Shown: piece after piece, positions 6,264 to 27,471 of the stretch
Numbering within the stretch: position 1 is the stretch's first letter
How the letters are laid out: every line of letters begins with the position of its first letter
DNA from: Candidatus Thorarchaeota archaeon
GTDB lineage: Archaea > Asgardarchaeota > Heimdallarchaeia > Hodarchaeales > Hodarchaeaceae
DNA length: 32,000 nucleotides
Assembly (NCBI GenBank): GCA_048882505.1
Contig: JBHLRO010000015.1
Span: 29,696 to 61,695 of the forward strand
Reading direction: 5' to 3'
Notes under the pieces: generated by a model
What the model saw: only the letters and a program-made list of their open reading frames with translations
Databases searched by the model: none
What the model was told of the DNA's origin: nothing
Position numbers and translations under genes: made by a program

Positions 6264-6929
6264 TTACATTATGTCATCATCCGTGATATGATCATCATCC
6301 ATCGGAGAACCGAGGAGACAATCCGGACATAGAGTGTATCCGCTCATCGATGATAATTCCTCAGAATAGTTGCCACAGTCATCACAGAATCCTTTAAAGA
6401 GAGTTTTTGTATGGTTCACATCATTGGGGAGAGATTCAATAAGAAGTCTTTCACGACGGATCCGAAGAAGGCCAGGGGAAAATCGTAAGATATCATTTGT
6501 AGAAACAATAGCAAGAGGGCGATCCTCCTCGTCTACGACAAGCATCCGTTCGATATCATATTGACTCATAAGAAGCATCGTATTTTCTAAGGTTTCATCT
6601 TCAGAAACGATATGAACCGGCGATGACATGACATCATCCGCTATTATTATTCCTGGGTCGAGTCCTCGCCCTACCACCCGAGTAATGATGTCTCCCTTCG
6701 TAATGATTCCTATGATGTCTCCATTCACACCTTCATCAGCTGTTAGAAGGACAGAACCAATCTTATGATCCATCATCAGCTTTGCCGCTTCCGCCACTGG
6801 GCGATTTGCGGACATTGTAACAATTTCTTTGGTTAGAGAAGTTAATAGAGTACGAAGTCGAATATCGCTCTCACCTATGTCGTTTGACCTCAGTGTGTCG
6901 CTTTCGTCTAACCCATTACTCGGATTCAC
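6264..6929 (-). CDS. Tandem CBS-domain protein with C-terminal zinc ribbon
   Basis: Two CBS repeats (KIGSVLL...GIITKGD; MSSPV...IVSTND) and C-terminal CDDC-x15-CPDC. GTG start; exact start uncertain. Confidence 0.88.
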   Translation of the reverse strand: MNPSNGLDESDTLRSNDIGESDIRLRTLLTSLTKEIVTMSANRPVAEAAKLMMDHKIGSVLLTADEGVNGDIIGIITKGDIITRVVGRGLDPGIIIADDVMSSPVHIVSEDETLENTMLLMSQYDIERMLVVDEEDRPLAIVSTNDILRFSPGLLRIRRERLLIESLPNDVNHTKTLFKGFCDDCGNYSEELSSMSGYTLCPDCLLGSPMDDDHITDDDIM

Positions 6930-6953
6930 TCTTGTTTCATTCCTTGTTGTTTA

Positions 6954-6975
6954 TTAGAGGTATAAAGACCTCTAA
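6954..6975 (-). promoter_or_regulatory. Inverted repeat enclosing a TATA-like box upstream of the CBS gene
   Basis: TTAGAGGT-ATAAAG-ACCTCTAA: perfect 8-bp arms. The minus strand reads TTTATA at the centre, about 33 nt before the GTG at 6929. Confidence 0.5.
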
Positions 6976-7043
6976 GTATGTTGACTTCGAATCCTAATAA
7001 AATGTTCGTATTGGTGCGACCAATGTTTTGCCATTCGAGAGAC

Positions 7044-10000
7044 TCAGATAAGTTTGGTGGGCCGTGGGCCTCGGTCAAACAGCATTTGCTTGCGTAGGTT
7101 CACCAGTTTTATCCAGGCCTTGGAATATGCCGATATTTCAGTATTATATGTTTCTTGCAGCTGTTCAATGATATGTAATAATCGAACTACCCATCCTGCC
7201 GATAACGATAAACTGATTAAATCGCTATGACAAACAGGACACAATGAGGAGAGTGGTATGCGTCGAAATACCGTTTTACACCTAGTACAACGGAAAGGTT
7301 GAAGAAAAAACCGGTTCATCGAGTTTGAAGTTTTGATCATGAAGTCATTCTGGAGGATTCCATCCACGAAATCACTTTCTTCAATTCCCCGTATCCGTGG
7401 AAGGATTTTGAGGATGGATTCAACCTTAGAAATAATCGTTTTGGTTTTAAACTGGTTTTCCAAGCGAAAAGATGAATAATTATCTATTATGTGGATTTTG
7501 GGTATGGAAGGGGCCAGATAGGATTGTTCGTATGTCATAAGATCTTCTCTGAGTGGATTTTCGTTCAATGATCTGTAATAAAGAAGATTCAGGGGCACGG
7601 AGCTATATTTGCTTGCTAAGGATAATCCCTCCCAGCTTTCTGGAAAATGAACGATCATGGGAATATCCATGCTTCCCCCCCGCTGAGTAGGGTAGAATTC
7701 TTTGGAGAAATTTAATAACACATCGAGCAGGAGAGTAATTGAGTCAACATCTCCATTGCAATTGCGAGTTTTTAAGCTATGCCAGAGCGGATGGGCCAGA
7801 AGGACATTTACGTCTTTGATGTGTCCAATTACCCTGCCAACCACTGCAATTGCAGAAAATGGAGAGAGTCCCACAATAATCGTACCAATCAGGGTTTCCA
7901 GTGTTTTACGTCTATAGTAGCGTGGGAGGCTGTATAGAGAGGACAATTCATCATCCACAAACTTTGTTTGCTTTATTAGAAAATCACCAGCGGACTGGTT
8001 AATGATCACATCAAAAGGGAAGAGTTCAACCATCTGGTCTTCATTTTTTAGCTCATCTCCATACACATCATGCGAATATCCAAGTAATTTTAGATCCGAA
8101 ATGGATGTATTAATTTCTTTTGGCGTAAAATGCGTCAAAGGGGCATTAGTCATTTCAAATCTCGAAGTGCCATCCTTATAGACGAGAAGATCGTATTTAG
8201 CTCTTAATATCCCTTTGGCTAAATGTTCAGGAATATGGTTACGACTATTAAGATAAGCCACCCCCTTAATCTTATCTACTTTAGCTTCTCCAGTCAGTTG
8301 AAAGGCCAATTCCAGTTGCGTTGCTAGATGAATGGGTTTGTAATGAGAAGGAAATGCATATTGCCCGCATGTGGTGCAATTTCTTTCAGCGGAAATATGT
8401 CCCTGCTTGCATACGTAATGTTGGTCCGTCTGTTCATCGCATTGAGGACAGAATACCTGGTAGGTAGATATCTCGCACGAGGCACAATACCGCTCTGCGA
8501 GGCGTACGTTTATTGTCGATTCACCTGCCGCCTTTAAAACATCTTTTTGACTTCCCCCGTATGATCCAATGGGAAATAAGACGTGAGCTGGCGGATTAAG
8601 ATGTCTCGGTTCTGCTTTCTCTACTCGGAGGATCTTTAAACCAATTCTACGGTGGCATAGAGATTTTATCTGAATGCCAGTTAAATGAGAAAGTATTTCT
8701 TCAATTGTGGGCGGTTCGGGTGATTTTAAGAGAATCTGGGTTAATTGTTGCTTTTTCCCCTTGAGGGCTTGGATAAATAGCTCAAACCGTGGACTACGCA
8801 GTTGATCTCCTTCAATTGTAAAGGGAACTCCAAGGTTACTTAAAATTTTAATCAAATCCGCATCTTGGGGAAACAAATCACTGTTCGACTTATCGATCAG
8901 TAAAAGAAGCTTTTCAAGGTTTCCAATAGCAATTTCATTCCAGTTGAAGGAGTAGTAAGGGTGAAGAGGGGTATTAGATAATCTAGATAGTCCTACAGCA
9001 ACCTCTTGAGGAGGTGGATTTAATATGGGAGATTCGAGATATCGCTTCAACGTGTCTACTGGGATGCTTAGTTTTGCTGCTAAAAATTCTAATCCTCTAG
9101 CTTGTTTAATCATGGCGGCATAAACTTCTTGACTCCACCATTCTTCGGTCCAACTTGCCTCTTCAATAGTTTCAGTTGCAGGGATATCGTCGGGTGAGAG
9201 AAGTAGGTCTCCCATCTCCCAGACTAGCTTGATCTTGTCCTTTAAATCACTAAATTCCGTAATAGATTCCACTCTAATGGTGGAACCATCCTTAAGCTCT
9301 ATATACGGACCAAGTAATGAAGATACTGGAAATAAAGTGATTGGACGATCCATTACATCAATAATAACATTCGTTCCAGGTGACAGCAGCTCTAAGAAAT
9401 GCATAGTTGCTGGGTGAATCCCTACTGCACCCTGTCCAGTATTACGGGCTATTCCATATCTAAGTCGGAATCCACCAGGAGCTTTTGATCGAGAAAGTAA
9501 CGGCCTTGTGCCCCTGGCATCCTTGGAAGAAAAGGATGGTTTTTTCCGTTTTTCAGTTACATGAGGTTTAAGCCATTCCCATTCTAGCAATTCGGCCGTC
9601 GTACGTTGTTCAGCGATAATGTTAATATTATCCATGAGTTTTTCTAATGTGACACACATTCCCATGCGTAATTGATTGTGGATATTGGGTAAATTTCTAA
9701 ATCTTCGAACTTCGATCCGTTCCGATGGTTCTCCAGTAATCTCAACCCCAATACTTTGGATTAGGGTCTCCACAAGATCCCTACGCAAATCTTGTGACCG
9801 ATCTATTAGGGCTAGGAATAATTCCATCTCCTCGATATATCGGTTAACTAAGGCTGGAGACGGTCGAAATCTCTCGATGTGCAGAAGTCTCCTAATATAG
9901 TCTGCGATGAGAATGACGAGGCCGATTATATCTCCTCGAACGTATCGTACAGTATTACTAAAAAAGAGGGTGAGATGATTTGTCCTATTCGAGATAAAAA

Positions 10001-10379
10001 TCTTCGGAATAATCTCTTGGGGAATACTGATCAAACCTCGACTCAGAATGACAAGTGCACTGTGAATAGCCAGGCGGATTAATTGGTTTGGAGATAACTT
10101 GACAAATCGCTCATTAACGATTTGTTTGGCAACCTCTGCAGCAAGTTGCAGCGCATTTTCGTGACTGAACAGATACTGAGGAAGATGTTTGTCGAGACCT
10201 GGGATATTAAGGATTGCTAGGATGTTTTCTTTGGAAGAAAAGGTTAGGCGGGATTCAACTGAATCCATAGGATCGTATTTTCTCGCCCTAGCCTTTGAAG
10301 CAATCGTCAATTGAGTATTAATGTTATTTCTTAAACCTAAACTATATTGTTCGAACTCTGGCACATTCATGGGTTTCAC
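7044..10379 (-). CDS. polC: DNA polymerase D large subunit (DP2) homolog, full-length but divergent and predicted catalytically inactive
   Basis: Colinear DP2 motifs: ASKARARKYDP, GGFRLRYG..RNTG..A.GIHPATM, HVLFPIG..GG, KGILRAK, KDGT.RF..T.APLTHF, LLLDVLLNFS, RGG.MD.P, Zn modules CASC/CPQC, C..H/CTTC and CTRC/CPVC. The catalytic motif reads KTRNCNGDVD (7743-7772) instead of KRRNCDGDED. GTG at 10379 overlaps the upstream stop; ATG at 10370 is an alternative start. Confidence 0.92.
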   Translation of the reverse strand: MKPMNVPEFEQYSLGLRNNINTQLTIASKARARKYDPMDSVESRLTFSSKENILAILNIPGLDKHLPQYLFSHENALQLAAEVAKQIVNERFVKLSPNQLIRLAIHSALVILSRGLISIPQEIIPKIFISNRTNHLTLFFSNTVRYVRGDIIGLVILIADYIRRLLHIERFRPSPALVNRYIEEMELFLALIDRSQDLRRDLVETLIQSIGVEITGEPSERIEVRRFRNLPNIHNQLRMGMCVTLEKLMDNINIIAEQRTTAELLEWEWLKPHVTEKRKKPSFSSKDARGTRPLLSRSKAPGGFRLRYGIARNTGQGAVGIHPATMHFLELLSPGTNVIIDVMDRPITLFPVSSLLGPYIELKDGSTIRVESITEFSDLKDKIKLVWEMGDLLLSPDDIPATETIEEASWTEEWWSQEVYAAMIKQARGLEFLAAKLSIPVDTLKRYLESPILNPPPQEVAVGLSRLSNTPLHPYYSFNWNEIAIGNLEKLLLLIDKSNSDLFPQDADLIKILSNLGVPFTIEGDQLRSPRFELFIQALKGKKQQLTQILLKSPEPPTIEEILSHLTGIQIKSLCHRRIGLKILRVEKAEPRHLNPPAHVLFPIGSYGGSQKDVLKAAGESTINVRLAERYCASCEISTYQVFCPQCDEQTDQHYVCKQGHISAERNCTTCGQYAFPSHYKPIHLATQLELAFQLTGEAKVDKIKGVAYLNSRNHIPEHLAKGILRAKYDLLVYKDGTSRFEMTNAPLTHFTPKEINTSISDLKLLGYSHDVYGDELKNEDQMVELFPFDVIINQSAGDFLIKQTKFVDDELSSLYSLPRYYRRKTLETLIGTIIVGLSPFSAIAVVGRVIGHIKDVNVLLAHPLWHSLKTRNCNGDVDSITLLLDVLLNFSKEFYPTQRGGSMDIPMIVHFPESWEGLSLASKYSSVPLNLLYYRSLNENPLREDLMTYEQSYLAPSIPKIHIIDNYSSFRLENQFKTKTIISKVESILKILPRIRGIEESDFVDGILQNDFMIKTSNSMNRFFLQPFRCTRCKTVFRRIPLSSLCPVCHSDLISLSLSAGWVVRLLHIIEQLQETYNTEISAYSKAWIKLVNLRKQMLFDRGPRPTKLI

Positions 10380-11092
10380 GAGAAGACTCGGACACCATTT
10401 GGGAACGTTACATTTAGAATGCCAACATTATCTAGGGTTGGGATGGAGGGGAATCGATAAACACCCGAATGATCCGAATTTGAGACGGGGAATATAGGCG
10501 TGGTTCCATTTAAGATATAAATAGAAAATACGTCTTGAAAAACGAATTGTGTACCAGATGACTGTTGTACAATAACGGAGTTACCCTTAACCTCGGCCCT
10601 GGCTATGAACGATATATTAAAAGTTTCTATGATCGTAGCCGACGGCTGTAAGGAATTCATTTCTAAATCAAACTCAGCAAATATCTCACTAGTGTAAATT
10701 TTGTCGTCTGAAACATTTGAAAAAGGGGGTTGATTTCCTATAAGACGAAAAGTGATAGGGTTAAGGCTAAGAGAAATGAAAACTTCTTGTACGCTATTGA
10801 GATCTTCAAAATCAGAAATAAAAGTCTCAATTTCGGCCATTGCGGAATCATTGGTGGTAACGCTTCCATCGATTGTATAATCTGCGAGTATGAGTTCTAA
10901 GAAATGTTGTAGCTCGCGTTTAGTATCACCATATGGCTCGATAAGCCCTTCACGATCCACCGCAATCCGGGTACCTCCATAATTCACTAAAACCAATGTC
11001 ATAGCAATAACATAAATGGCTATCAACATAGTTGCTAAAATAAACATTTGTCCTTTTCTATTCCCCAAATGGCGGGCTTTGAGCAAAGTCAT
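10376..11092 (-). CDS. Pilin-like protein with class III (type IV prepilin-like) signal peptide
   Basis: Basic leader NRKG|QMFIL followed by a hydrophobic helix (ILATMLIAIYVIAMTLVLV). Confidence 0.75.
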   Translation of the reverse strand: MTLLKARHLGNRKGQMFILATMLIAIYVIAMTLVLVNYGGTRIAVDREGLIEPYGDTKRELQHFLELILADYTIDGSVTTNDSAMAEIETFISDFEDLNSVQEVFISLSLNPITFRLIGNQPPFSNVSDDKIYTSEIFAEFDLEMNSLQPSATIIETFNISFIARAEVKGNSVIVQQSSGTQFVFQDVFSIYILNGTTPIFPVSNSDHSGVYRFPSIPTLDNVGILNVTFPNGVRVFS

Positions 11093-11093
11093 T

Positions 11094-11609
11094 TTAGATC
11101 TTCTCCCATAAATAGAGCCTCACAACGAATTGACCTCGAAACTGACCGAGAGCAGCAGAGGCGAACGAACTGAGAAAATAATTGGCTGTCACACTATTCC
11201 CCCCCTCAGCTAGGGATCCGATCTCACTTCCTGATCCGATATGTACAACATAGTTGGGATCCATTGTACCATTTGAAACTACATGAGACAAAAGGGCATA
11301 ACCCGTTTTTACGGGAAGAATGGTGGCAATATAATCATTTAACAGGTTCCGATAATTCACATATTCCGTGATGAAACTAGTATCATTATAGAGGTAAATG
11401 ACAGGTCTCAAAATACCCGCTTCATCCGCAGTGGTTAAGATGTCCGTGGCCATACGATCCAGGCTTGAGGTATCTTCTGACTGTTGTACAAGTCGTTCTG
11501 CAGAGTTAATGAGTAGAAGAGCAAGCACCAACATGAGTGAAACCGCGATGAGCGTTTCTGAAATCTGAAGCTGCCCACGGTGGACGCTTCTTCGCTTAGC
11601 AGTTCGCAC
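11094..11609 (-). CDS. Pilin-like protein with class III signal peptide
   Basis: KRRSVHRG|QLQISE followed by a hydrophobic helix; the RGQxxxxE pattern is typical of archaeal minor pilins. GTG start. Confidence 0.78.
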   Translation of the reverse strand: MRTAKRRSVHRGQLQISETLIAVSLMLVLALLLINSAERLVQQSEDTSSLDRMATDILTTADEAGILRPVIYLYNDTSFITEYVNYRNLLNDYIATILPVKTGYALLSHVVSNGTMDPNYVVHIGSGSEIGSLAEGGNSVTANYFLSSFASAALGQFRGQFVVRLYLWEKI

Positions 11610-11612
11610 TTT

Positions 11613-12794
11613 TTACTCGCTCCAAAGAGTAATCGTACATTTCATCAACAAATTTCGGACTAGAACCGGATATGTCCTAGAAAGTCTAGATTCTGCCGAA
11701 AGTTCATCCTCTTGGGTTCCGAATATATCGTAAAACACGCCTGTCGTTGGAGTATGATCTAAAATCGCTGGATAAGAGCCTATTGCCACCTGATATGTAT
11801 CACCGATTTGGGCTATACTGAAAACAACTACAAGCCCATTAGTTGGAATAGGAATAGTTTCATTCCCGCGTACACTGGTTGATAAGTCCAAGGTGGTATT
11901 TGAAAATCCTCCAACTGTGTCCTGGTATAGGATGGAAACATAATGCTGATCTGGGCTTTGTATGAGTTGATCCGAAACCAACAAGGTCGTAGAGTTTATA
12001 CCTCCACCCCACACTGTGCTCGAAGAAGCCGTTCCTATTACCGCTTGACTGAATGCAGGATTGGGATCAATATAGGCCCAGTTCACACCCCAAAGAGCCC
12101 CTTTTTCTACAATACTTAGAACCATGTGCTCTGCATCAGGAATACCTGCATTAGGTATCAAATAATTTTTGGATGCCTGTCCTGCCGCATCAGTTATGGA
12201 AACCCCTAGGGAAGCGATCGTTCCAGTCGTAAAGTCAACCACAAAAAAATTGGCCTTTGCGGATGATATCGGAGACGCGTGTGCATTCCAGGTTCCTACG
12301 GTAATAATATTTGTATTATTATTGCTATTTAAGACCGCAACTTCGACAGAGGTTTCAAGAGTAGGTAGAAGGGCAAGCTGGAAATCTCTTCCTGAAGGGA
12401 GATGGATGGCCTCTTTTAGTGCTGTATAATCGAACGTACTATATCCAGATATTTGAAAGACTGGGAAATCTGTTCCTGTAACCAATCTGGCCATTTTTGC
12501 TGGATCTATAGTCAAAGAAACGGTGGAAATATCGCTACCCAATCCAAAAGTGGTAGGAAGTGTTTGCCGATATCCCCAATCTGGATCCCCCTCTTCCAGT
12601 AAGATTGAACGGGCAAAAATGTCGAGTTCTTCCACGGTTATTCCTTTTAAGGTGGAGACTTGAATTCCAGCTTGAATAGTGACAATTATCAGGATGAGTT
12701 GGGATAGCATGAGCATAAAGAGTAAAAGACTCACGATGAAGTCTACTGCTCGTATCTGTGCTCTTCTACGTTTGAAACGTCCATGGTATCCCAT
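11613..12794 (-). CDS. Large pilin-like/adhesin-like protein with class III signal peptide
   Basis: KRRRA|QIRAVDF followed by a hydrophobic helix, then EEGDPDWG and a beta-rich Thr/Ser/Val extracellular region. Confidence 0.75.
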   Translation of the reverse strand: MGYHGRFKRRRAQIRAVDFIVSLLLFMLMLSQLILIIVTIQAGIQVSTLKGITVEELDIFARSILLEEGDPDWGYRQTLPTTFGLGSDISTVSLTIDPAKMARLVTGTDFPVFQISGYSTFDYTALKEAIHLPSGRDFQLALLPTLETSVEVAVLNSNNNTNIITVGTWNAHASPISSAKANFFVVDFTTGTIASLGVSITDAAGQASKNYLIPNAGIPDAEHMVLSIVEKGALWGVNWAYIDPNPAFSQAVIGTASSSTVWGGGINSTTLLVSDQLIQSPDQHYVSILYQDTVGGFSNTTLDLSTSVRGNETIPIPTNGLVVVFSIAQIGDTYQVAIGSYPAILDHTPTTGVFYDIFGTQEDELSAESRLSRTYPVLVRNLLMKCTITLWSE

Positions 12795-12847
12795 TATAAT
12801 GCACGTTTAACAACTAATTTTCGACTTTCTAATAAAAACCCCGATTT

Positions 12848-13300
12848 TTATACCGAATCTTCAGCTTCAGAAGCACCGATATTTGAAACCTCAAGTTGAA
12901 TAATGACTTCCTCCACCCGATCCTTGAACTCCAGCAGTGTTGTTTCCAGCTCTGTTAACTGCAACCCTTTTTCCAACAAGCTTGTGGCCTGGCCTATCAA
13001 TTCATCGGCTTTCTGTGCTTTTCCACTACTAATCTGTGCGGTCAGTTCGGACAATTTGTCAACCTTAGTAACGATCTGATTTACCAAAATTTCGATCTGG
13101 GAAATCCTTCCCTCAAGCGGGGCTAGATCGACCTCAACAGGAGCAGAAACAGGACTTCCAGTGATTGAGGAGAGCTTACTTGGATCCATTGTTCCTGCTC
13201 CCATTCCTTGGACAAGCAAAAACTCCATATTCTGGATTTTATCCTCTAGTAAGCTGACTTTCGTAAGCAATTCTTCCAACATTTTTTCTTCTTTACCCAT
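12848..13300 (-). CDS. Acidic coiled-coil protein within the pilus operon
   Basis: Heptad-like Leu/Ile/Val spacing in two segments separated by a Gly/Ser/Pro linker. No TM segment or signal peptide. Starts 22 nt after the TadC-like stop. Confidence 0.7.
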   Translation of the reverse strand: MGKEEKMLEELLTKVSLLEDKIQNMEFLLVQGMGAGTMDPSKLSSITGSPVSAPVEVDLAPLEGRISQIEILVNQIVTKVDKLSELTAQISSGKAQKADELIGQATSLLEKGLQLTELETTLLEFKDRVEEVIIQLEVSNIGASEAEDSV

Positions 13301-13322
13301 TCTACATCACACAGAGTCAAAT

Positions 13323-14300
13323 TTAAACCAAGAACACTATTGATCCTTTGAAGATAATGTAGCAGGCCGCTAATAAGAAACACGAATGTCTGAGACCGAT
13401 TTTTGCATCTCCTTCTCCCATTTTTCCTGCAATCAAACCTGAAAATACCGCCTCAATGACCATCAGATGAAAAAATACGAGCTGGAGGCCGGCCAAATTA
13501 AATGGCAGTCCAGCTGTTGGACGTTGACCTTCCGTAACCGCAGAAACAATTTGGATTGCCAGCGTTTGAAAGAAAGAAACCAACAGGATAATCATAACAA
13601 TCGAAAATACGATAAAACTGGCATAAATAATCCAGGTATATGGTTTCATCGCACCGAGTCGTTCACGTTTTAATCCCAGGATTTCAGAGACATGAGTATG
13701 AGCAGATTCGAACACTTCCTCGATTGCACCGCCTGACCGTTCTGCTTCCAAAATCAATAACGAAGTCCTTTTCATGAGGGGAGTATCAGCATGCTCTGTT
13801 AATCCACGCAAAGTATTGCTGAAAGGAATTCCCCAGCTGATTTTGGCTGCCATCTTCTTCAGTTCAGGAGTGAGCGATCCATACTGATGTTTGGATGCCT
13901 CCATGATGGCGCGAGGAAGCGGGAGGCCAGTTTTTTGGGCATCCGAGATTTCCCTCAGCAATGAAGGAATGTGGTCGTCAATATCGTCACGCCATCGTCT
14001 ATCCGAGGTATAGGCCCAAGCGGGGACCAAAATCAGTGCGAAAATCGTAACTATTGTTGCATCAATAATGTCAAAGAAATTGAGGATTGGGTCTCGGATT
14101 ACCTCGCTAATGGATCTGAGAAAAGGATGAGCTTGCCCCTCTGGAATGGGGGGATCCGTTGGCGATGGCATTGAAACAGATCCGATATGTTCTAAAACGG
14201 GAATATAAAAACCGATAAGGACAATGACTGATATAATAATGAAGAGGATGCCAGAAACAATCCAGATTCTTTGTTCACGTTTTTCGGTTAACTTTCCCAT
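13323..14300 (-). CDS. Type II secretion F / TadC / FlaJ-like membrane platform protein
   Basis: IDDHIPSLLREI...TGLPL..AI, YGSLTPEL, WG, AERSGG motif, and C-terminal TM helices with SGLIAGKMGEG. Confidence 0.9.
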   Translation of the reverse strand: MGKLTEKREQRIWIVSGILFIIISVIVLIGFYIPVLEHIGSVSMPSPTDPPIPEGQAHPFLRSISEVIRDPILNFFDIIDATIVTIFALILVPAWAYTSDRRWRDDIDDHIPSLLREISDAQKTGLPLPRAIMEASKHQYGSLTPELKKMAAKISWGIPFSNTLRGLTEHADTPLMKRTSLLILEAERSGGAIEEVFESAHTHVSEILGLKRERLGAMKPYTWIIYASFIVFSIVMIILLVSFFQTLAIQIVSAVTEGQRPTAGLPFNLAGLQLVFFHLMVIEAVFSGLIAGKMGEGDAKIGLRHSCFLLAACYIIFKGSIVFLV

Positions 14301-14319
14301 GCAGTATCCTCCGATGTGT

Positions 14320-15207
14320 TTAGATTTCTCTTGAAGCTGATGTAACCAATAGAATCATAATTGACAACATAAGTGGCATAAGGAAGTAGGTCAATAACAG
14401 CATGACAGCTGTCCCCAACTGAGTGGCATCTGGGGATATCACAGCAAGAATAGCTAAAATGACTACAAAGAAGAGTGGAGCAACAACACCTAAGATCATG
14501 AAGATTTCTGCGAGAACCCCCAATTGTTCAATGAATTCCTTGGTCTCTTCTTCTTTAAGTTTCATGTGAGCCTTAGTTTCCGCAGCAAGATAGAATGTTA
14601 AGTCTCCACCACTTGTGATGGTTGCCGATATACCATCCAAGAATTTAGAAAATCGTTCACTGGGCGATCTGTCACTTGCAGTTCGTAATGCTTTTAGTAT
14701 ATCATATCCAAAAATTTCTATGTCGCGTGTAATCCGTTTACTCTCCTTAGAGATCTCAGGGGCCACAGACTCTTCACCTGCCAGAGAATAGAATAATCGG
14801 TCAGGAGGAACCCCACTGGAAGTCATAGCGGAGAGATAGGAAGCTGTGGAAGTAAGTCCTGCATCTAAAAGGAATTTACGATCCTGTGCCCGCATTGATG
14901 GCCAATACAAGAATGGAAGATATGTTAATAGTCCAATTAGGCCACCAAGTATCAATCCAATTATAATAATAAAGATTAATAGATCGGCTCCAAGAAAAGT
15001 TAATCCTCCAACAATTGAAAGAATCGTGACTAGGATTCCTACGAGTATTGAGCTGAAAATCGCGGTTCCTAAGTATGATCGAACAGAGATATCCATTCCA
15101 GCCTTTTTGAGGCTTGTACCCAAGCGATCAAAGCGGCCTTTTTCGATCCAAGGTTCCAAGTATCTGCCAAACCTCAAATAGCCAACTCGGCGAATAACTT
15201 TACTCAC
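14320..15207 (-). CDS. Type II secretion F / TadC / FlaJ-like membrane platform protein
   Basis: LKKAGM, SSGVPP, RDIEIFGYD, SPSERF..FL.G...TI.SGGDL..YL, several TM helices; directly downstream of the ATPase. Confidence 0.9.
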   Translation of the reverse strand: MSKVIRRVGYLRFGRYLEPWIEKGRFDRLGTSLKKAGMDISVRSYLGTAIFSSILVGILVTILSIVGGLTFLGADLLIFIIIIGLILGGLIGLLTYLPFLYWPSMRAQDRKFLLDAGLTSTASYLSAMTSSGVPPDRLFYSLAGEESVAPEISKESKRITRDIEIFGYDILKALRTASDRSPSERFSKFLDGISATITSGGDLTFYLAAETKAHMKLKEEETKEFIEQLGVLAEIFMILGVVAPLFFVVILAILAVISPDATQLGTAVMLLLTYFLMPLMLSIMILLVTSASREI

Positions 15208-15233
15208 AGAGAACCACCGAATGTTATCAATCC

Positions 15234-16742
15234 TTAAATTGCTTTTAGTTCACGTTTTGCTCGCTCAACGGTCTCTAGGGGGTTTTGATAATAGCTTGTG
15301 ACCACCTCGGCCACTTGAGAAAAGTGGGCCAATTTTTTCTTAACCATCCAACGTATTACCGTCTTTCGCCGCTCTAGCTCATCTAATACTTGAGCTTCGG
15401 TCAATCCTTGCCCTTCCTGAATCCCTTCTAATGTATATGAGCGTCCATAGTTTGTGAAAGTATCTTCCCGCGCGTTCCAACCAAAAACCTTGTTGGTTAT
15501 TAGCTCAGTCGTTACTGGATCTATTCCCACAATTTCGGTGCACTCGACAACCCGCCTTACCTGTTTTTCTCCCCGACGTACCTTTCGAAGAACCACAAGC
15601 ATGTTTAATGTCTGAATCAGGGTTCTGGGAATATTCATTGGTTCGTTTTCGAGCCGCCGAATGGTACCTGAAACACTGTCTCCATGTATCGTACCCATGC
15701 CTGTATGACCTGTAGCCATCGCCTGAAAGAGGTTGTAAGCTTCCGCTCCTCGCACTTCTCCTACGAATAGATAATCAGGTCTTTGCCTTAAAGCGGCACG
15801 GAGAAGGTCGTACATTGATACTTCTCCGCGTCGACTACCATCTGCTTCCCGACCTCCGTACCCTTCTCTAGCTACTGCTGGTATCCAGTTCTCATGGGGA
15901 ATATGCAGCTCCGCGGTATCTTCGATTGACACAATTTTCATTCCCGTTCTAATAAACATGGCCAAACTGTTAAGTAACGAGGTTTTTCCTGCTGCAGTAC
16001 CACCCGCAATAACCACAGAATTTCTATTCTCCAATGCATACCAGAGAAAAGCGGCTAGGTCAAAATCGATGGTGTTAAAGGTTACCATATCAGTGATAGT
16101 TAAGGGATCCGAGCGGAACTTACGAATTGTAAATGTGCTCCCACGCTGGGTAACCTCTCTGCCGTATGTGAGTTGAAGGCGGCTCCCATCAGGGAGGGCC
16201 GCATCGAGGAGCGGTCGAGCAACGCTAATGTGGCGTCCTGATCTTTGGGCAAGTTTGATGATAAATGCGTTAAGATCCTCTTCATTTTCAAATTTAACAT
16301 TTGTCTGGATACTTTCAAACTTTCTATGCCAAATATAAACTGGGATATCAACTCCATCGCATGATATGTCTTCAACGTTATGATCTTTCAGCATGGCGTC
16401 GATCCTGCCAAAACCCACGAAATCTCTTGATATATGATAGTTGATTTTATCAAAAGTCTTTTCATCTAACTTTAATCCATATTGTTTGGCAATCCCAATA
16501 ACCTTTTGCCGTAAATAGTCCCGTGCTAATTCAGGTGATTTTAGGACATTGAAATCGACGTCTAGCTCTTCCTCGAGTACGTCCTTGATCATAGTCAGGA
16601 TATCGGACTCCTTAGAGCTTAGAGGAACCTCCACCACGGTATATTTTGTTTGCTTTGTATCTGGATCTGTTGCTACCAAAGCATAGGAAAATGGGGGTAT
16701 TAGGGGATATGTCTCCCGAATTAAACTACTTGACTGTGCCAT
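15234..16742 (-). CDS. Type II/IV secretion / type IV pilus assembly ATPase (VirB11/TadA/FlaI family)
   Basis: Walker A GGTAAGKT, Asp box EDTAEL, LRAALRQRPD, Walker B FVGEVRG, His box TGH...TIH; also EDISCDG and FTIRKF. Confidence 0.95.
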   Translation of the reverse strand: MAQSSSLIRETYPLIPPFSYALVATDPDTKQTKYTVVEVPLSSKESDILTMIKDVLEEELDVDFNVLKSPELARDYLRQKVIGIAKQYGLKLDEKTFDKINYHISRDFVGFGRIDAMLKDHNVEDISCDGVDIPVYIWHRKFESIQTNVKFENEEDLNAFIIKLAQRSGRHISVARPLLDAALPDGSRLQLTYGREVTQRGSTFTIRKFRSDPLTITDMVTFNTIDFDLAAFLWYALENRNSVVIAGGTAAGKTSLLNSLAMFIRTGMKIVSIEDTAELHIPHENWIPAVAREGYGGREADGSRRGEVSMYDLLRAALRQRPDYLFVGEVRGAEAYNLFQAMATGHTGMGTIHGDSVSGTIRRLENEPMNIPRTLIQTLNMLVVLRKVRRGEKQVRRVVECTEIVGIDPVTTELITNKVFGWNAREDTFTNYGRSYTLEGIQEGQGLTEAQVLDELERRKTVIRWMVKKKLAHFSQVAEVVTSYYQNPLETVERAKRELKAI

Positions 16743-16959
16743 TTTAAATCACTTTTAGGTGTAAAATAATCCGCTGGGGGACACCTAGCGAGAGGAATGT
16801 CACCATGGTTTTTTTTCCGCAATGAAATAGATCTTTGGGGATTTTAATGGCGACATGGTTTGGTTCTTAATTCTCGTTACATTATCTTTTGAGACTTGTG
16901 TTTTTTTAGGCTTGCTATTAGGTTTACTAGACGGTGAACATATGCGTCTTGTTAAGGAA

Positions 16960-17409
16960 TCAAGATATAATGATGGTGATATTATTGGAAATTCTTTGAC
17001 TGTAAAGCGTGATGAATGGTGAAGTACTTACGAACTCTCCACTGGCCGACGTGGTATACCTAGGACCAAGGGAGAAGGTTACGGCATCGTCTATTTCTAG
17101 ATTTCGGGTAAAACCTCTGAGTCTAAGCCGCCCATCCGCAGTAGTTGACATCCGGATCGTATACCGAAATCCTTGGCCCAAGAAGTCAGGAAGATCGATT
17201 TGCATCTGGATAGTTTGATGAGACGCACGTAGGCCTAATACATTCTGCAGAATCTGGTTTTGAACCAATTTAAGGGTCTGGGTCATTTCAATATTCCCAA
17301 TATTGACGCGGAATTGCTCACTCATATTCAGGAACATCGCATTAGTGATTATCACTAGACTAAGTCCCAAAACGAATATTATTGCAAAGGTAATGTATTG
17401 AGAGGCCAT
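16960..17409 (-). CDS. Pilin-like protein lacking a basic leader
   Basis: N-terminal hydrophobic helix (MASQYITFAIIFVLGLSLVII), then an amphipathic helix and IDLP...G..Y beta region, inside the pilin cluster. In-frame TGA/TAG stops lie just upstream. Confidence 0.6.
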   Translation of the reverse strand: MASQYITFAIIFVLGLSLVIITNAMFLNMSEQFRVNIGNIEMTQTLKLVQNQILQNVLGLRASHQTIQMQIDLPDFLGQGFRYTIRMSTTADGRLRLRGFTRNLEIDDAVTFSLGPRYTTSASGEFVSTSPFITLYSQRISNNITIIIS

Positions 17410-17442
17410 TATGGCTCACTACTTTGATATTCACTACGAACT

Positions 17443-18402
17443 CTAGGGAGTTGAGAGATTTACATGGTAAATGACTGGCTGTACTATCACATCGAATCCC
17501 GCTAAGTTGGATATTCCTTGGAGACTTCTTGTACTCCAGATGGTGCTATCAATAGCTGGACCTCCCGAGCTCGAAATTCTTTCCCAAACAAGATCCAACT
17601 GCGCTAGGCCGCTCGTTCCTGGTACCACCACAGGAGGGGTACTATTCTGTTGTACATGCACAGAAACCTGCTTGAAATCTGTGCGAAGTGTGCCAAAGTC
17701 TCCCGATAGAAGTACAAGGAAAATCTGGAAGCGAATTTCGGGGGTGGGAGAAGTTTCGATGCTAAGATGGATAGCAATCCTATAATTCAAACTAATATGG
17801 TGACGGCGATCATTCTGATGACTTAACGTTAAATTCGTGATATCAGGCCATGCTGTGGTCGAGAATGGACCCGTTATGAAGACCTGGTCACGAATTTCGT
17901 AAGGATTTGGGCCTGTAAGGTATTGGAAACTTCCACGCGGTAACACGGCTTGCGGGCTGTTATAGACCCAATCTAAAATTCCTATGTCCAAAATTCCATC
18001 TTGTGGATCGATATCATTGAAGATGTTATACACTAGCTGGTCATTTCGATCGACAAGCCTTAATCCGACATGATAGGATTCAGGAGTATAGTCGATCTGA
18101 CCAGAGGGAACCTGCATTAGTATCGTGCTGAATCCACCTGGAGCTCCACTCTCACTAATCAAGGACTTGATGGTGGAATCGAGTTCCAAGAAACTATTAC
18201 GAACCGCGGTAATTGATTCCTCGGTTTGAGCTCGGTCAATAAAAGGTATTATTTGGATATATGTCACCATTACTCCAACTAGTATCAACGCAAAAATGAT
18301 CACAGCTGCTAGAATTGGTGAAACGGAGCGATGCCTGGATATAATTTTGCTAAATGACGGTTTTAATGTAGGGATGAATTTTTTGGACAAGAAATATCCC
18401 AT
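17443..18402 (-). CDS. Pilin-like protein with class III signal peptide
   Basis: RHRS|VSPILAAVIIFALILVG...IIP resembles the archaeal pilin N-terminus RAVSPVIG. The true start may be nearer the cleavage site. Confidence 0.8.
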   Translation of the reverse strand: MGYFLSKKFIPTLKPSFSKIISRHRSVSPILAAVIIFALILVGVMVTYIQIIPFIDRAQTEESITAVRNSFLELDSTIKSLISESGAPGGFSTILMQVPSGQIDYTPESYHVGLRLVDRNDQLVYNIFNDIDPQDGILDIGILDWVYNSPQAVLPRGSFQYLTGPNPYEIRDQVFITGPFSTTAWPDITNLTLSHQNDRRHHISLNYRIAIHLSIETSPTPEIRFQIFLVLLSGDFGTLRTDFKQVSVHVQQNSTPPVVVPGTSGLAQLDLVWERISSSGGPAIDSTIWSTRSLQGISNLAGFDVIVQPVIYHVNLSTP

Positions 18403-18458
18403 TTCATGTGCTTCTTTGCGAACAGCCCGTTTTGATTTAGGCGTACTGGTGCAATTCC

Positions 18459-18476
18459 ATCCTTTTTAAAAAGGAT
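18459..18476. promoter_or_regulatory. Perfect 18-bp palindrome, candidate operator/TATA region in the pilin-radA divergent intergenic region
   Basis: ATCCTTTTTAAAAAGGAT equals its own reverse complement and lies about 57 nt upstream of the pilin start at 18402. Confidence 0.5.
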
Positions 18477-18888
18477 TTTCGTTTTACTACGTTCCATTCC
18501 TAATTATGTGTTACCATTTAAAATGGCCCGATCTTTGTTATTATGGATTCTGATCATAGGCGGCATTAGGCCAGAATGAAAGATCAGAACTGGCATACGG
18601 ATTCAGTACTTTCAAAAAGGATAGTAAGTGTGGGATGCAGGTAAGATTGATAGATGAAAACCACTTTAAACGGAAATCAAATTTTTAAATCCCTGCTAAT
18701 GTAACTGTCCTCAGTTAGAATGGCCACATATCTAGCTTTAGCAATTTTAATCGTATTACTGAAACCATATAGGGTGGAAGAACGTATGCATAGAATATGT
18801 GAGGTTTTTGGAATTCTTTGAAGGAGATCCCGTAGTGGGGTACAAACGTGGAACGTTATTTGATGAATATGACTGGGTGAGGACACAA

Positions 18889-18915
18889 TAGTTTTATAGT
18901 ATAGTAGTTTTATAG
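18889..18915 (+). repeat. Direct repeat TAGTTTTATAG x2 upstream of radA
   Basis: Identical 11-mers at 18889-18899 and 18905-18915 (period 16), each containing TTTTATA. Confidence 0.6.
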
Positions 18916-18968
18916 AGTAGTACGTAGTATTCCTAATACGAGACTCACCTTTAAGGTATGGGAAGATA

Positions 18969-20003
18969 ATGCCTCCCAAAAAGAAAACTGAAGAAACTAA
19001 TTCAGAAGCCAAAGCCAAATCGGATAAAAAGCCTAGGAAAGCAACAACAATTACTGAACTTCCTGGAATAGGGCCATCGACAGCAACTAAACTGATAGAA
19101 GCAGGCTTTTCCACCCTGGAAGCAATAGCTACCGTTTCCATTGGAGAATTGATGTCAGTAGCAAGCATGGGTGAAAAAACCGTAACCAAAATCATTGAGG
19201 CGGCGAGAGAAGCCTTGGACATCGATTTCGAGACTGCAAAATCGGTTTTAAATCGACGAAGTGGCTTGGCTAAGATTACCACTGGTAGCCAAAAGCTTGA
19301 TGAGCTCTTCGGGGGTGGTATCGAAACAGGCGCAGTTACAGAACTATATGGCGAATTCAGGACTGGAAAGACGCAGATTGCACACCAAGTTGCCGTGACT
19401 ACCATGCTTCCGAAGGAAAAGGGGGGATTACGAGAAGGGGATGAGTACCCTAAGGTGGTGTACGTCGATAGCGAAGGAACCTTTCGTCCTGAAAGAATCG
19501 TATCGATGGCTGCAAGATGGGAAACTGATCTTGATACGAACCAGGTATTAGATAACATATTACATGGCCGAGCTCATAATTCTGATCACCAAATGGTACT
19601 AGTAGAAAAAATGGTTAAGGAAGTGCTTCCTACAGAACCAGTTAGACTGATGATAGTAGACTCCTTAATTGCACATTTTAGAGCTGAGTACGTCGGTCGT
19701 GGCACTCTTGCCAAAAGGCAGCAAAAACTCAATCAACATATTCATACGATACTTCGTGCTGCCGAGATGGCCAATCTTGCTGTAATCGTAACGAATCAAG
19801 TGCATGCGAAACCTGATCAATTTTTCGGTGATCCGACCGCTCCAGTCGGTGGACATATCGTAGCCCATGCAGCTCAAACCCGGGTTTATCTTCGAAAATC
19901 CAAAGGAGAAAGACGTATTGCTCGGATTGTCGATAGTCCTCTCCTTCCCGAGAATGAGGCCATTTTTGGATTAACCGCTGATGGTATTGTTGACGTTACA
20001 TAA
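18969..20003 (+). CDS. radA: DNA repair and recombination protein RadA
   Basis: HhH N-domain (ELPGIG), ITTGSQKLDELFGGGIET, Walker A GEFRTGKTQ, EGTFRPER, IVDS, FRAEYVGRG.L..RQQKL, VTNQV, GGHIVAH, RIARIVDSP. Confidence 0.98.
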   Translation: MPPKKKTEETNSEAKAKSDKKPRKATTITELPGIGPSTATKLIEAGFSTLEAIATVSIGELMSVASMGEKTVTKIIEAAREALDIDFETAKSVLNRRSGLAKITTGSQKLDELFGGGIETGAVTELYGEFRTGKTQIAHQVAVTTMLPKEKGGLREGDEYPKVVYVDSEGTFRPERIVSMAARWETDLDTNQVLDNILHGRAHNSDHQMVLVEKMVKEVLPTEPVRLMIVDSLIAHFRAEYVGRGTLAKRQQKLNQHIHTILRAAEMANLAVIVTNQVHAKPDQFFGDPTAPVGGHIVAHAAQTRVYLRKSKGERRIARIVDSPLLPENEAIFGLTADGIVDVT

Positions 20004-22492: not shown

Positions 22493-22553
22493 CTCCTTGA
22501 AAATCTGGCAAATAAAAGGATTTTGCTCTCCATATCTGGGTACTGTGAGAAAT

Positions 22554-23585
22554 ATGAGAGTAATCGTAAGTGGTATATCTGGCTCTGGACGATCGGACTC
22601 CCTTGCTGACTTGAAACAATATATCAAGAAGAATTACCCTAATAAGAAACTTATCATCTTTAACACAAATCGTGCCATGCGTGAGATGGCCAAAGAGCTC
22701 CGCATTGATGTTAAACGAGAGAAAATGCTTGATCTCTCACCAAACACTCTTCAAACACTTCGATCTTCAGTATTCGAACGCATTTTGAGGGAAGTAGAAG
22801 ATTATGAGGAAAAGTATGAGGATGTTGCGATAATTCTTGATACTCACGCCACTTATCGGTGGAAAGAGCATTTGGTTGCTGGTTGGGATTTTGGATATCT
22901 CACGAAATTCAATCCTGATCTCTTTCTAACCATTATAAACGTAATCAACGATATATACGAAACCCTAGAGGCGAATCCCTTATGGGGAGGAATGAACAAT
23001 CGGCTTCAGTTGGGAATCTGGCAGGAAGAGGAGGCCTTTACTACAAAGCTTATGGCGGACATTCTCAAAAAGCCCTTCTACATAATTGCCAGAAAACAAC
23101 CTCCTGAAACTCTGTATCGTTTAATCTATGAGCATGAAGTTAGCGATAAGGTGTATCTTTCATATCCTATGACCCATATACGTGATCCTGATAAAAAAAA
23201 AGAAGTTGAAAATCTCGCCCAAGAACTACGGGCTTTAGGTTTTGTTGTGTTTGACCCCTCAACAATGGAACTTGAAAAAAACCATGGAGACATTCCTGAA
23301 GATATTCGTGTGTATGATTTCTATCAGACTGTTTATAGAGATTTCCAGTTGATAGATCAGGGCACAATGGTGGTTGTATACTATCCTGAGATTGTACACT
23401 CGTCAGGAGTCGTTAATGAACAAGCGTACGGGTTTAGGAATAACAAATATGTCTTTGCGGTCTTTCCTGCCAAAAATTATAGTCCATTCACGTCATTTTT
23501 TGCAGACAAGACTTTTTTTTCCGTAAAAGAGCTAATTCAGTTCCTCAAGGACGACTTTATTCCTGCACGAGAACAAAGAGCCTAA
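22554..23585 (+). CDS. Fusion of archaeal adenylate/NMP-kinase-like P-loop domain and nucleoside 2'-deoxyribosyltransferase/DNPH1(Rcl)-like domain
   Basis: N-half: RVIVSGISGSGRS, LDTHA, FNPDLF. C-half (from about 23148): VYLSYP, VFDP, RDFQLID, SSGVVNE. ATG at 22554 preferred over the track TTG at 22497. Confidence 0.75.
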   Translation: MRVIVSGISGSGRSDSLADLKQYIKKNYPNKKLIIFNTNRAMREMAKELRIDVKREKMLDLSPNTLQTLRSSVFERILREVEDYEEKYEDVAIILDTHATYRWKEHLVAGWDFGYLTKFNPDLFLTIINVINDIYETLEANPLWGGMNNRLQLGIWQEEEAFTTKLMADILKKPFYIIARKQPPETLYRLIYEHEVSDKVYLSYPMTHIRDPDKKKEVENLAQELRALGFVVFDPSTMELEKNHGDIPEDIRVYDFYQTVYRDFQLIDQGTMVVVYYPEIVHSSGVVNEQAYGFRNNKYVFAVFPAKNYSPFTSFFADKTFFSVKELIQFLKDDFIPAREQRA

Positions 23586-27200: not shown

Positions 27201-27471
27201 TCGGTACGGCTCCTGCATAGCCACCAGTACCCTTTCCACGGGGGATTAGAGGGATATTGTAAGTACGTGCTATTTCCACAGAATGTAGGATATCTTCTAG
27301 ACTTTCAATTCGTATCACCGCATCTGGTGTTGTTTTCAAAAATTTTAAGATGGGTGACGGCAAAACTGCCACATCATGGCTGTTAACCATGCGTTCTACT
27401 TTATCAAAAGAAATTTTGTTGTTAAAAGTTTCTTTCAACTTGGGAATAATGGCGGATTTCATGAGGATCAA
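24268..27471 (-). CDS. FAD-binding and Fe-S oxidoreductase (GlcD-GlcF-like fusion; alpha-hydroxy acid dehydrogenase-like)
   Basis: PRGKGTG..AG FAD-binding PCMH domain, GLEGTTG, DP..LLNPGK, two 4Fe-4S motifs (CAQCGYCQQVC; CTTCNRCEQPGVC), CCG domains (GC/CCG/CPGC; HDSC/CCG/CPCC), and a Met-rich tail. TTG at 27471 or ATG at 27462. Confidence 0.9.
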   Translation of the reverse strand: MILMKSAIIPKLKETFNNKISFDKVERMVNSHDVAVLPSPILKFLKTTPDAVIRIESLEDILHSVEIARTYNIPLIPRGKGTGGYAGAVPINKGLVLNFGWFRRILRVDSESKLVTVEPGIVWKNLEYELEKHNLALKMYPTSAPGSSVGGFFAMGGSGVGSYENGSFLNVVESIEVVHLDGSIKTVSGEDLKYYYGLEGTTGLVSKITLRVENKHDIIPLAFGVPTAKGLQEVLMALPEGDFPIWHVSFLTPNYLHLKNLAMKEQAERAAEHSHGDPDYLGPVLLPEEGYFILIAVKGHDLESIESNLDTLFRKYGGIRYSQEIATHEWDERYYMMRIKRLGPTLVPSEGISQTSKLAEVLSLSEKQLKGIAIEGIMSTPDESVLLTFNLGDERSWGYSLSFSKSLRFLRILKKRGGRAYGTGLYFVSEAPNIFGKDLVDNLKAFKIENDPNNLLNPGKVLFPKARTLRLAMFMANFPIIRSFLTPMEIVTRKLRGRRRAKYIPDDLVWEAFTCAQCGYCQQVCTIFEGRRLEKASPRGKFYYLKQLAKGKAEMTDEMAAEFLLCTTCNRCEQPGVCQLDINIQSLWDEMRGVLIENKNCATFPAFHMMAGGIVTGNNIWAHDPAHRDDWIPAEALENVGKQAELGYWSGCTASFVEPNIAHGAVTIMKKGGLDFTLLGKEENCCGVPSLMAGLWDVWEDTMEKNIRTIYGQGIRNLVISCPGCFAAMAHYYPAFTEKMSDKKPELKKMWEEIELTHISKITDELIQEGKIKLTNERNKKVTWHDSCHLLRPSDYYENPRNVLQAVPGVEFREMEHNREKSLCCGSVLTRIGSWDASNDIAKIKLTEAIDSGAEEVYATCPCCEFQMRVGADKNNIDLPIRDMTDIVLESMGENPLTDPTATVLHVWNEVFEPAILLMTPEGLNEMMAHLLPEMMESMPGLFKTMFKLMRVTRLSYVMSPIMGLMGKLPFIMPTMFKMMLPGMLPKMLPQIKEYMSITIPGMAKYPQMQDRMDYILPYTMEKLLPTMLPKMMSNLKPMAVKGMQAHMKGKLEPLGSFRSTAVPIRA

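Follow-up and report, generated by a model that had tools for sequence, protein, structure and literature searches.

A catalytically degenerate DNA polymerase D large subunit encoded directly behind type IV filament genes in a single Hodarchaeales genus

In the large subunit DP2 of the archaeal DNA polymerase D (PolD) two aspartates, D956 and D958, are invariant and critical for polymerase activity (PMC4996933), and the histidine of the PHT motif (H931) forms a steric gate and also aids dNTP binding (PMC7708050). For the Heimdall_B3/LC3-like group of archaea, Kazlauskas et al. (2020; PMC7544198) described an inactive or divergent small subunit DP1, no active DP2 and an epsilon-like family B polymerase (PolB) with a zinc C-terminal domain. 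In a recent classification of archaeal type IV filaments, 'system 1' (Epd-like) is recognised by its two platform genes (PMC13705601). Methanococcus maripaludis needs its split-platform Epd pilus genes for natural transformation, and ComEC is absent from archaea (PMC10133366). Surface filaments have been reported on cultured Hodarchaeales. Here we examined a stretch of 32,000 nucleotides, called the window below (contig JBHLRO010000015.1, positions 29,696 to 61,695, of assembly GCA_048882505.1). On its minus strand nine co-oriented filament genes are followed by a full-length DP2 homologue, which we call DP2*. The source genome is a member of the Hodarchaeales of the Heimdall B3/LC3 group; the best database matches were named Hodarchaeales or Heimdallarchaeota, and B3_Heim is one of the genus relatives. 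We think it probable that DP2* is a non-catalytic PolD scaffold which is still paired with DP1 and is co-transcribed with an ordinary type IV filament operon. Because the pairing traces to a single rearrangement in the genus, it most likely represents a shared transcript rather than a new DNA-uptake machine.

DP2* (7044-10379, minus strand; 1111 amino acids) has the N-terminal, central and catalytic DP2 domains in one chain (Pfam, 9.4e-37, 3.6e-69 and 1.2e-78) and is alignable end to end with Pyrococcus abyssi DP2 (6HMS chain B, 530 bits). In this alignment the catalytic loop (7743-7763, minus strand) reads NCNGDVD, compared to NCDGDED in P. abyssi, i.e. D956 is replaced by asparagine. The selectivity region is GLSPFSAI as against GLAPHTSA; PFS thus replaces PHT (7854-7862, minus strand) and the steric-gate histidine is gone. 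The catalytic loops of the relatives read NCNGD[IV]D, SCNG[AV]xD or NCSGNID. The window clade retains the equivalent of D958, the B3 clade of the genus has lost it as well. The extent of the changes was determined in an alignment of 39 Hodarchaeales and 72 canonical sequences in which a column was taken as invariant when at least 95% of canonical DP2 agreed. More than a third of these columns (119 of 315, 38%) carried another residue in 80% or more of the 39 Hodarchaeales sequences, and 145 of 315 were retained. The replacements include D956, the steric-gate histidine (0% of the 39 Hodarchaeales against 100% of the 72 canonical sequences), the motif RMGRP, which is now KILRV, and the glutamine of the C-terminal PCNA-interacting (PIP) box, which is now proline. 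The C-terminal tail, canonically KP[KR]Q[IV]SLxDF, reads GPRPTxL and stops before the aromatic pair, and the PIP box (QxxLxxF) is gone. The retained columns include all cysteines of Zn-I and all four of Zn-III. An earlier note on this DNA, made from the sequence alone, had proposed an inactivated PolD large subunit. The loss of the canonical loop (NCNGDVD), the steric-gate histidine, RMGRP and the PIP box bears this out.

Is DP2* still a functional protein? In many of the replaced columns the new residue is fixed in 100% of the 39 Hodarchaeales sequences. The ratio of non-synonymous to synonymous substitution rates (dN/dS) between the window and its closest relative was 0.089, within the range of the neighbouring genes. 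Because the catalytic residues are lost while dN/dS is low and the new residues are lineage-fixed, DP2*, as judged from its sequence, is a working protein under purifying selection, but not a polymerase. A decaying pseudogene was rejected on the same grounds, i.e. the dN/dS of 0.089 and the lineage-fixed replacements. The source genome gave a single DP2 match, as did every one of 20 genus relatives and two single-contig genomes. That the 5% of the genome still missing might hide another, active DP2 was considered and rejected since the two single-contig relatives also have a single copy. Separately, the DP2* gene of one single-contig relative (G015:C1:2667766-2671071) contains an in-frame TGA and the deposited protein has 868 amino acids. 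That Hodarchaeales have a dead DP2 is already published (PMC7544198). Because DP2* is the lineage's only DP2, with its inactivity on record there, it is not a paralogue recruited to the pilus. The literature searched, including the accessible part of PMC7544198, does not mention a pilus context of the dead DP2. Purifying selection on DP2*, the loss of the PIP box and a uniform GEHD motif in DP1 were worked out in the present analysis.

The operon order is pil1, pil2, ATPase, TadC1, TadC2, cc150, pil7, pil8, pil9, DP2*. Besides DP2* the products are five pilin-like proteins carrying class III signal peptides, a PilB/ArlI-type ATPase, a platform in two halves and a coiled-coil protein. The gaps at the end of the operon are 3 nt (pil7-pil8) and 1 nt (pil8-pil9), and pil9 and DP2* overlap by GTGA. 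Gene order, strands and spacing were as the earlier note had given them, including the nine co-oriented genes, these three junctions and the divergent radA at 566 nt. The GTGA overlap is also present as described, but the relatives point to a different start. In 15 of 17 aligned relatives DP2 starts at an ATG 6-9 nt past the pil9 TGA, mostly preceded by GAGG; of the other two, one shows an ATGA overlap and the second, the closest relative, resembles the window. Therefore, the ATG at 10370, 5 nt past the pil9 stop, is the likelier start of DP2* in the window than the overlapping GTG, as far as can be predicted from the alignment. The pil9-DP2* coupling is tight whichever start is used, and the TCG-TGA end of pil9 is kept across the genus. 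At the other end of DP2*, 114 nt downstream, follows a gene for a protein with a CBS pair and a Zn ribbon (6264-6929, minus strand; Pfam CBS 9.4e-22). It lies 3' of DP2* in all fetched genus loci that extend so far; a CBS gene adjoining DP2 was not found in the fetched loci of other families. Rfam and tRNA scans of the window gave no matches. In the intergenic regions, read by eye, we noted only weak TATA-like and T-run candidates. The sequencing runs listed for 7044-14300 and for 9400-11200 were all DNA metagenomes, with no RNA run among them.

How far does the adjacency of DP2* and the pilus genes extend? In 19 of 20 genus relatives pil7 and DP2* share a contig, and the junction gap is at most 9 nt. 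The adjacency thus goes beyond an accident of one genome. The order gatD-NFACT-CBS-DP2*-pilus genes-radA was constant in the 17 fetched genus loci wherever the contig extends. Within the genus the identity of DP2* drops to 45% and that of the ATPase stays near 90%. The flanking 20 kb are as syntenic as the junction itself. Because of this, the adjacency is one event seen many times and the number of genomes adds little. We found no recurrence of the DP2-cassette adjacency in independent lineages among the Heimdallarchaeia families compared; it occurs in this genus (g1) only. A conserved DP2*-pilin association as a system, as put forward in the earlier note, is therefore not what we see; the association goes back to a single rearrangement confined to one genus, an outcome of the kind that the note itself had named as speaking against it. 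One member of the same genus (G006; a single contig of 1.4 Mb, 71% complete) gave no match for DP2, DP1 or pil7. Either the assembly is partial or this relative is much reduced.

In the sister family DP2 is also degenerate, with RTANGDID in one genome (G023) and no acidic residue left in the other (G022), and it is present as a single copy in each. In G023 the operon ends after pil9 against a convergent gene for the primase small subunit, priS (L053:5912-6883), and DP2* comes after a beta-eliminating lyase gene, not at the pilus operon. In G022 a Zn-ribbon gene lies face to face with DP2*. When metagenomes were scanned with the sister-family DP2* (L054), no relative turned up; therefore, the sister-family result rests on two fragmented genomes. 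Other Heimdallarchaeia families have canonical DP2, often with an intein at the catalytic cysteine. It is located on other contigs than the pil7 homologue or, in one complete genome, 830 kb from it. The cassette TadC1-TadC2-cc-pil7-pil8-pil9 also occurs in these families, with the active DP2 elsewhere. In family f3 the cassette ends against Hsp20; in f6 it is followed by a co-directional EMC6-like gene and NFACT. Taken together, the sequences indicate that loss of DP2 activity is common to both sampled families of the order and that the pilus fusion is seen only in this genus. The fusion either arose in this genus or was lost from the sister family. Several neighbours of the cassette may be recorded here in their own right. 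The priS gene in G023 is a second replication gene beside this cassette, in a different arrangement. Eukaryote-like genes flank it elsewhere: in G041 (L061:12438-13904) the cassette is preceded by an EAP30/Vps36-like and a rhomboid gene, and a Ras-family GTPase gene adjoins TadC1 in G028 (L057:6757-7299).

The nine filament genes all lie on the minus strand. In all five pilin-like proteins a hydrophobic helix follows a short basic N-terminus with a G/A/S-Q or SP site; class III signal peptides were judged by eye, without a dedicated predictor. The first gene, pil1 (17443-18402), encodes 319 amino acids and has ...SRHRSVSP/ILAAVIIFALIL in the N-terminal region (cleavage region HRSVSP/ILAAV). 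It has a weak match to DUF7289 (Pfam), and orthologues at the same place in the genus are 47-53% identical. The small pil2 protein (16960-17409, 149 amino acids) starts with MASQ/YITFAIIFVLGL (cleavage region MASQ/YITF), and the identity of its syntenic orthologues in the genus is 43-49%. Pil7 (11613-12794, 393 amino acids) has the N-terminus RRAQ/IRAVDFIVSLLLF (cleavage region RRAQ/IRAV) and a large C-terminal domain. Homologues of like length were present in 66 of 83 Heimdallarchaeia genomes, and structural look-alikes (TM-score 0.7-0.8) in Bathyarchaeota and Thermoproteota. Pil8 (11094-11609, 171 amino acids) has the N-terminus HRGQ/LQISETLIAV (cleavage region HRGQ/LQISE) and a weak match to DUF7262 (Pfam). 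The last pilus gene, pil9 (10376-11092, 238 amino acids), has the N-terminus RKGQ/MFILATML (cleavage region RKGQ/MFIL). A candidate class III signal peptidase is encoded elsewhere in the source genome (Peptidase_A24 at G000:C18:13165-13440); with 26.8 bits against a cut-off of 26.5 the match is marginal.

The filament assembly ATPase of the PilB/ArlI/GspE family (15234-16742, 502 amino acids; Pfam T2SSE 8.7e-37) has Archaeoglobus fulgidus GspE2 as its closest solved relative (2OAP, 421 bits), followed by FlaI at 287 bits. It is about 90% identical throughout the genus with a dN/dS of 0.018. Against the NCBIfam FlaI model it scored 422 bits, under the cut-off of 550. An archaellum was considered and rejected because of this score and because no ArlH (KaiC/RecA-like) or archaellin domain is present among the nine products. 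The platform is split. TadC1, the N-terminal half (14320-15207, 295 amino acids; Pfam T2SSF 1.3e-14), covers positions 5-244 of the 555-position ArlJ model, and TadC2, the C-terminal half (13323-14300, 325 amino acids; T2SSF 1.7e-16), aligns to the C-terminal halves of the UpsF and ArlJ models. cc150 (12848-13300) is a soluble coiled-coil accessory protein of 150 amino acids, assigned from sequence features, without signal peptide or membrane helix. Its dN/dS was 0.008. It had no match in Pfam or NCBIfam; a lead from the Atlas to archaeal FlaC (FlaC_arch, 0.79) was sub-threshold. A cc150 gene follows TadC2 also in families f2, f3, f4 and f6.

The canonical partner of DP2 is encoded elsewhere. 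The genome's one DP1 is located on another contig, convergent with cdc6/orc1 (L002:1324-2892, G000:C24), in agreement with the statement of the earlier note that the window holds no DP1 gene. DP1 is present in 20 of 21 genus genomes and its identity through the genus falls in step with that of DP2*. The phosphodiesterase (PDE) motifs I, II, IV and V are retained; motif III is GEHD, not GNHD, in 18 of 19 aligned genus sequences and GERD in the remaining one. The DP1 genes of G008 and G012 contain one TGA each. A complex model of DP1 with DP2* residues 950-1111 reached a score of 0.61 compared to 0.00 for the best of three controls. This mark was reached by 51 of 78 solved complexes and, among mismatched pairs, by 2 of 108. 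At least 36% of contacts are common to the runs, and the partner has a predicted local distance difference test (pLDDT) value of at least 39, so the partner fold is uncertain. The modelled interface on DP2*, residues 1025-1057, is the Zn-III finger. Because a like complex has already been solved (6HMS, 6T8H), the model shows likeness and possibly memory.

On the other side of the operon radA (18969-20003, plus strand; HhH and Rad51 domains, Pfam Rad51 4.9e-90 and HHH_5) is divergent from pil1, from which it is separated by 566 nt (18403-18968). It is one of four RadA-like genes in the genome, and orthologues of this type at the same position in the genus are 77-96% identical. More generally, Hodarchaeales genomes have three to five RadA/Rad51-like genes each scoring below 1e-60, e.g. 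G000:C2:354335-355303; besides the window type they form a second group (about 66-70% identity), a third (near 60%) and a fourth (near 44%). In 14 f3 genomes of five genera the best radA match, of the window type, shares a contig with the pil7 homologue at a distance of 5-11 kb. Because it is common to two families, f1 and f3, the linkage of radA and the cassette is wider than the DP2* fusion. In an annotated f3 locus (L057, G028:C1:2793000-2812900) a glycosyltransferase, a Ras-like GTPase and other genes lie between radA and the cassette. NFACT shows a like cross-family linkage to the cassette; therefore, old synteny here need not mean function. Within the radA-pil1 intergenic region a block GAT.TAAG-GATTTTTGTATT was at least 80% conserved in 13 aligned sequences (12 relatives and the window), but its alignment in the window is loose. 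The block might serve as a common promoter or as the binding place of a regulator. As to competence genes, ComEC had no match in the genome and DprA scored 24.9 bits, under the cut-off of 29.6. The earlier note had named ComEC and DprA among the partners to look for. Their failure to appear is a weak test and says little because transformable archaea lack ComEC, too.

Three other explanations were weighed against these data. In the boldest one DNA is taken up or exchanged by the filament; at the membrane DP2*, by itself or together with the DP1 nuclease, would bind or process the incoming strand and hand it to RadA. It would account for a tight coupling that persists in a deeply diverged genus and for the position of radA, divergent here and 5-11 kb from the cassette in the 14 f3 genomes. 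It also has a precedent in the split-platform Epd genes needed for transformation of M. maripaludis, again in archaea without ComEC (PMC10133366), and DP2* retains the DNA-binding fold and the zinc fingers and has acquired new, lineage-fixed residues. However, all this goes back to one evolutionary event, and synteny is no weaker in the flanks than at the junction. In the sister family DP2 is degenerate without the adjacency, the cassette is widespread with other tail neighbours, and in f3 radA is separated from it by the genes named above. Further, DP1 is found at cdc6/orc1 rather than at the pilus, and pilins are extracellular whereas DP2* is without signal peptide or membrane segment. We consider this explanation quite unlikely. 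Hence the competence-like system of the earlier note, with a dead DP2 handing DNA to RadA, is disfavoured by the single origin of the fusion and by a DP2 that is degenerate without adjacency in the sister family; the pilus-specific role it gave to DP2* does not agree with the other tail neighbours of the cassette and a DP1 beside cdc6/orc1.

Co-regulation without contact appears somewhat less remote, although still rather improbable. As is the case for Ups pili and repair genes in Sulfolobales, a DP2*-DP1 repair nuclease might have come under the control of the pilus promoter, and stress would then raise filament, RadA and nuclease jointly. DP1 keeps metal-binding PDE motifs while DP2* has lost the polymerase residues, the divergent region shared with radA holds the genus-conserved block, and loss of the PIP box suggests detachment from the PCNA-bound replisome. 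On the other hand, the block is not clearly present in the window itself, the change from N to E in DP1 motif III bears on the presumed nuclease activity, and the caveat of a single event applies here as well. Finally, DP2* might still polymerise via the two acidic residues remaining in the loop (N-G-D-V-D). The window clade does keep the D958 equivalent, the last loop aspartate is kept in every member examined, and selection on DP2* is strong. Against this, D956 was essential in an alanine scan cited by PMC4996933, the B3 clade has lost D958 too and G022 is without any acidic residue. The steric-gate histidine and the RMGRP motif are gone, 38% of the canonical invariant columns are replaced, and PMC7544198 lists the group as without active DP2. 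A residual polymerase is thus most improbable.

We return to a non-catalytic DP2* on a shared transcript as the probable explanation. The nine upstream genes would encode an archaeal-type type IV filament with a split platform. Prepilins, once cleaved by a class III peptidase whose gene lies elsewhere, are predicted to be assembled by the ATPase and the two half-platforms into a surface filament, with pil7-pil9 as probable minor or tip subunits. The default role of such a filament would be adhesion or cell-cell contact. DP2* appears to have turned into a non-catalytic scaffold which kept the fold, the zinc fingers and the C-terminal DP1-binding finger and lost the PCNA box. It most likely pairs with DP1 and serves in replication or repair as a module that gives structure or holds the nuclease. 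Family B polymerases, one of them Pol-epsilon-like, would carry out the DNA synthesis. A 1504-amino acid PolB is encoded in the genome (L107:3622-8136, G000:C12), one of four PolB-family genes; its best solved relatives are eukaryotic Pol epsilon catalytic subunits (1e-56). In the ancestor of the genus the DP2*-CBS gene pair may have landed directly behind pil9, and since then it would have been read through from the pilus promoter. We infer co-transcription without a functional link between filament and DP2*.

Several observations weigh against this explanation. The junction was held at no more than 9 nt, with GAGG before the ATG, while DP2* diverged to 45% identity; it thus outlasts many accidental fusions. 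A DNA-related role of the filament is possible by analogy, considering radA at 5-11 kb in two families and the split-platform pili of Methanococcus. As to the scaffold, the complex model reproduces a textbook pair with the partner fold modelled at low confidence, and neither of the sister-family genomes (85% and 80% complete) yielded a DP1. If real, this absence means that DP1 pairing cannot be the whole reason for the persistence of DP2*.

Two further genes in the window are unusual fusions. One (22497-23585) encodes a 362-amino acid fusion of an AAA_17 kinase-like domain with DUF4406 (nucleoside deoxyribosyltransferase-like) and lies beside a HAD hydrolase throughout the genus. The other (24268-27471) encodes 1067 amino acids in which FAD-binding, 4Fe-4S dicluster and two CCG domains are joined.

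Eukaryotes have some of their closest known archaeal relatives in the Hodarchaeales, whose mode of replication bears on the origin of the eukaryotic replisome. As seen at this locus, the sole large subunit of their PolD is a pseudo-enzyme under selection which has lost the PCNA box and probably is still tied to DP1. The pilus context matters only if it is functional; the comparative evidence indicates that it arose once and is unneeded for the persistence of DP2*. Should it be functional after all, for which we see little chance, a retired polymerase subunit would have been re-used as a cytoplasmic DNA-handling part of a filament machine, together with the DP1 nuclease and RadA. This would constitute a new archaeal pathway of DNA uptake or exchange in the closest known relatives of eukaryotes. 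Transcriptomes and proteomes are available for cultured Hodarchaeales, among which are the strains HC1 and SC1 (bioRxiv 10.1101/2025.02.26.640444), making the link between pilus and DP2* cheaply testable.

How does the locus compare with known systems? With DP2 of PolD from P. abyssi and Thermococcus kodakarensis (5IJL, 6HMS, 6T8H, 6KNB) DP2* shares the length class, the three Pfam domains, the Zn-I and Zn-III cysteines and the C-terminal domain which in PolD binds DP1. It differs by D956N, the exchange of the histidine for F, the lost RMGRP and PIP box and 119 of 315 replaced columns, and its gene adjoins neither DP1 nor cdc6. The Heimdall_B3/LC3-like group (PMC7544198) agrees in lineage, in having no active DP2, in a divergent DP1 and in a Pol-epsilon-like PolB with extra length. 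The filament genes are like archaeal 'system 1', i.e. the Epd pilus of Methanococcus, ancestor of bacterial Tad (PMC13705601), in that an ATPase, two platform genes and several class III proteins form one operon. In contrast to 'system 1', the Epd-specific pilin and the peptidase EpdA were not identified, and the ATPase is nearest to A. fulgidus GspE2 and ArlI. Ups pili and the Ced importer of Sulfolobales and the bacterial competence pili (ComEC/DprA/RecA) have in common with this locus a type IV filament near a recombinase gene, the analogy drawn in the earlier note; unlike in the competence systems, ComEC was without a match here and DprA was under the cut-off. To our knowledge, there is no case of a polymerase subunit in Ups/Ced or competence pilus systems.

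A parallel to a retired polymerase is found in eukaryotes. In Pol epsilon the inactive C-terminal polymerase half and Dpb2, an inactive DP1 homologue, are kept as a scaffold of the replisome. The homology of DP1 and the B-subunits is described in PMC4996933 and PMC7544198. The likeness does not extend to the fold, since Pol epsilon belongs to family B and DP2* is of the two-barrel type, and DP1 here keeps most of its nuclease motifs. What the two have in common is a dead polymerase module which is maintained under selection together with a partner of the DP1 family, while another polymerase domain does the synthesis.

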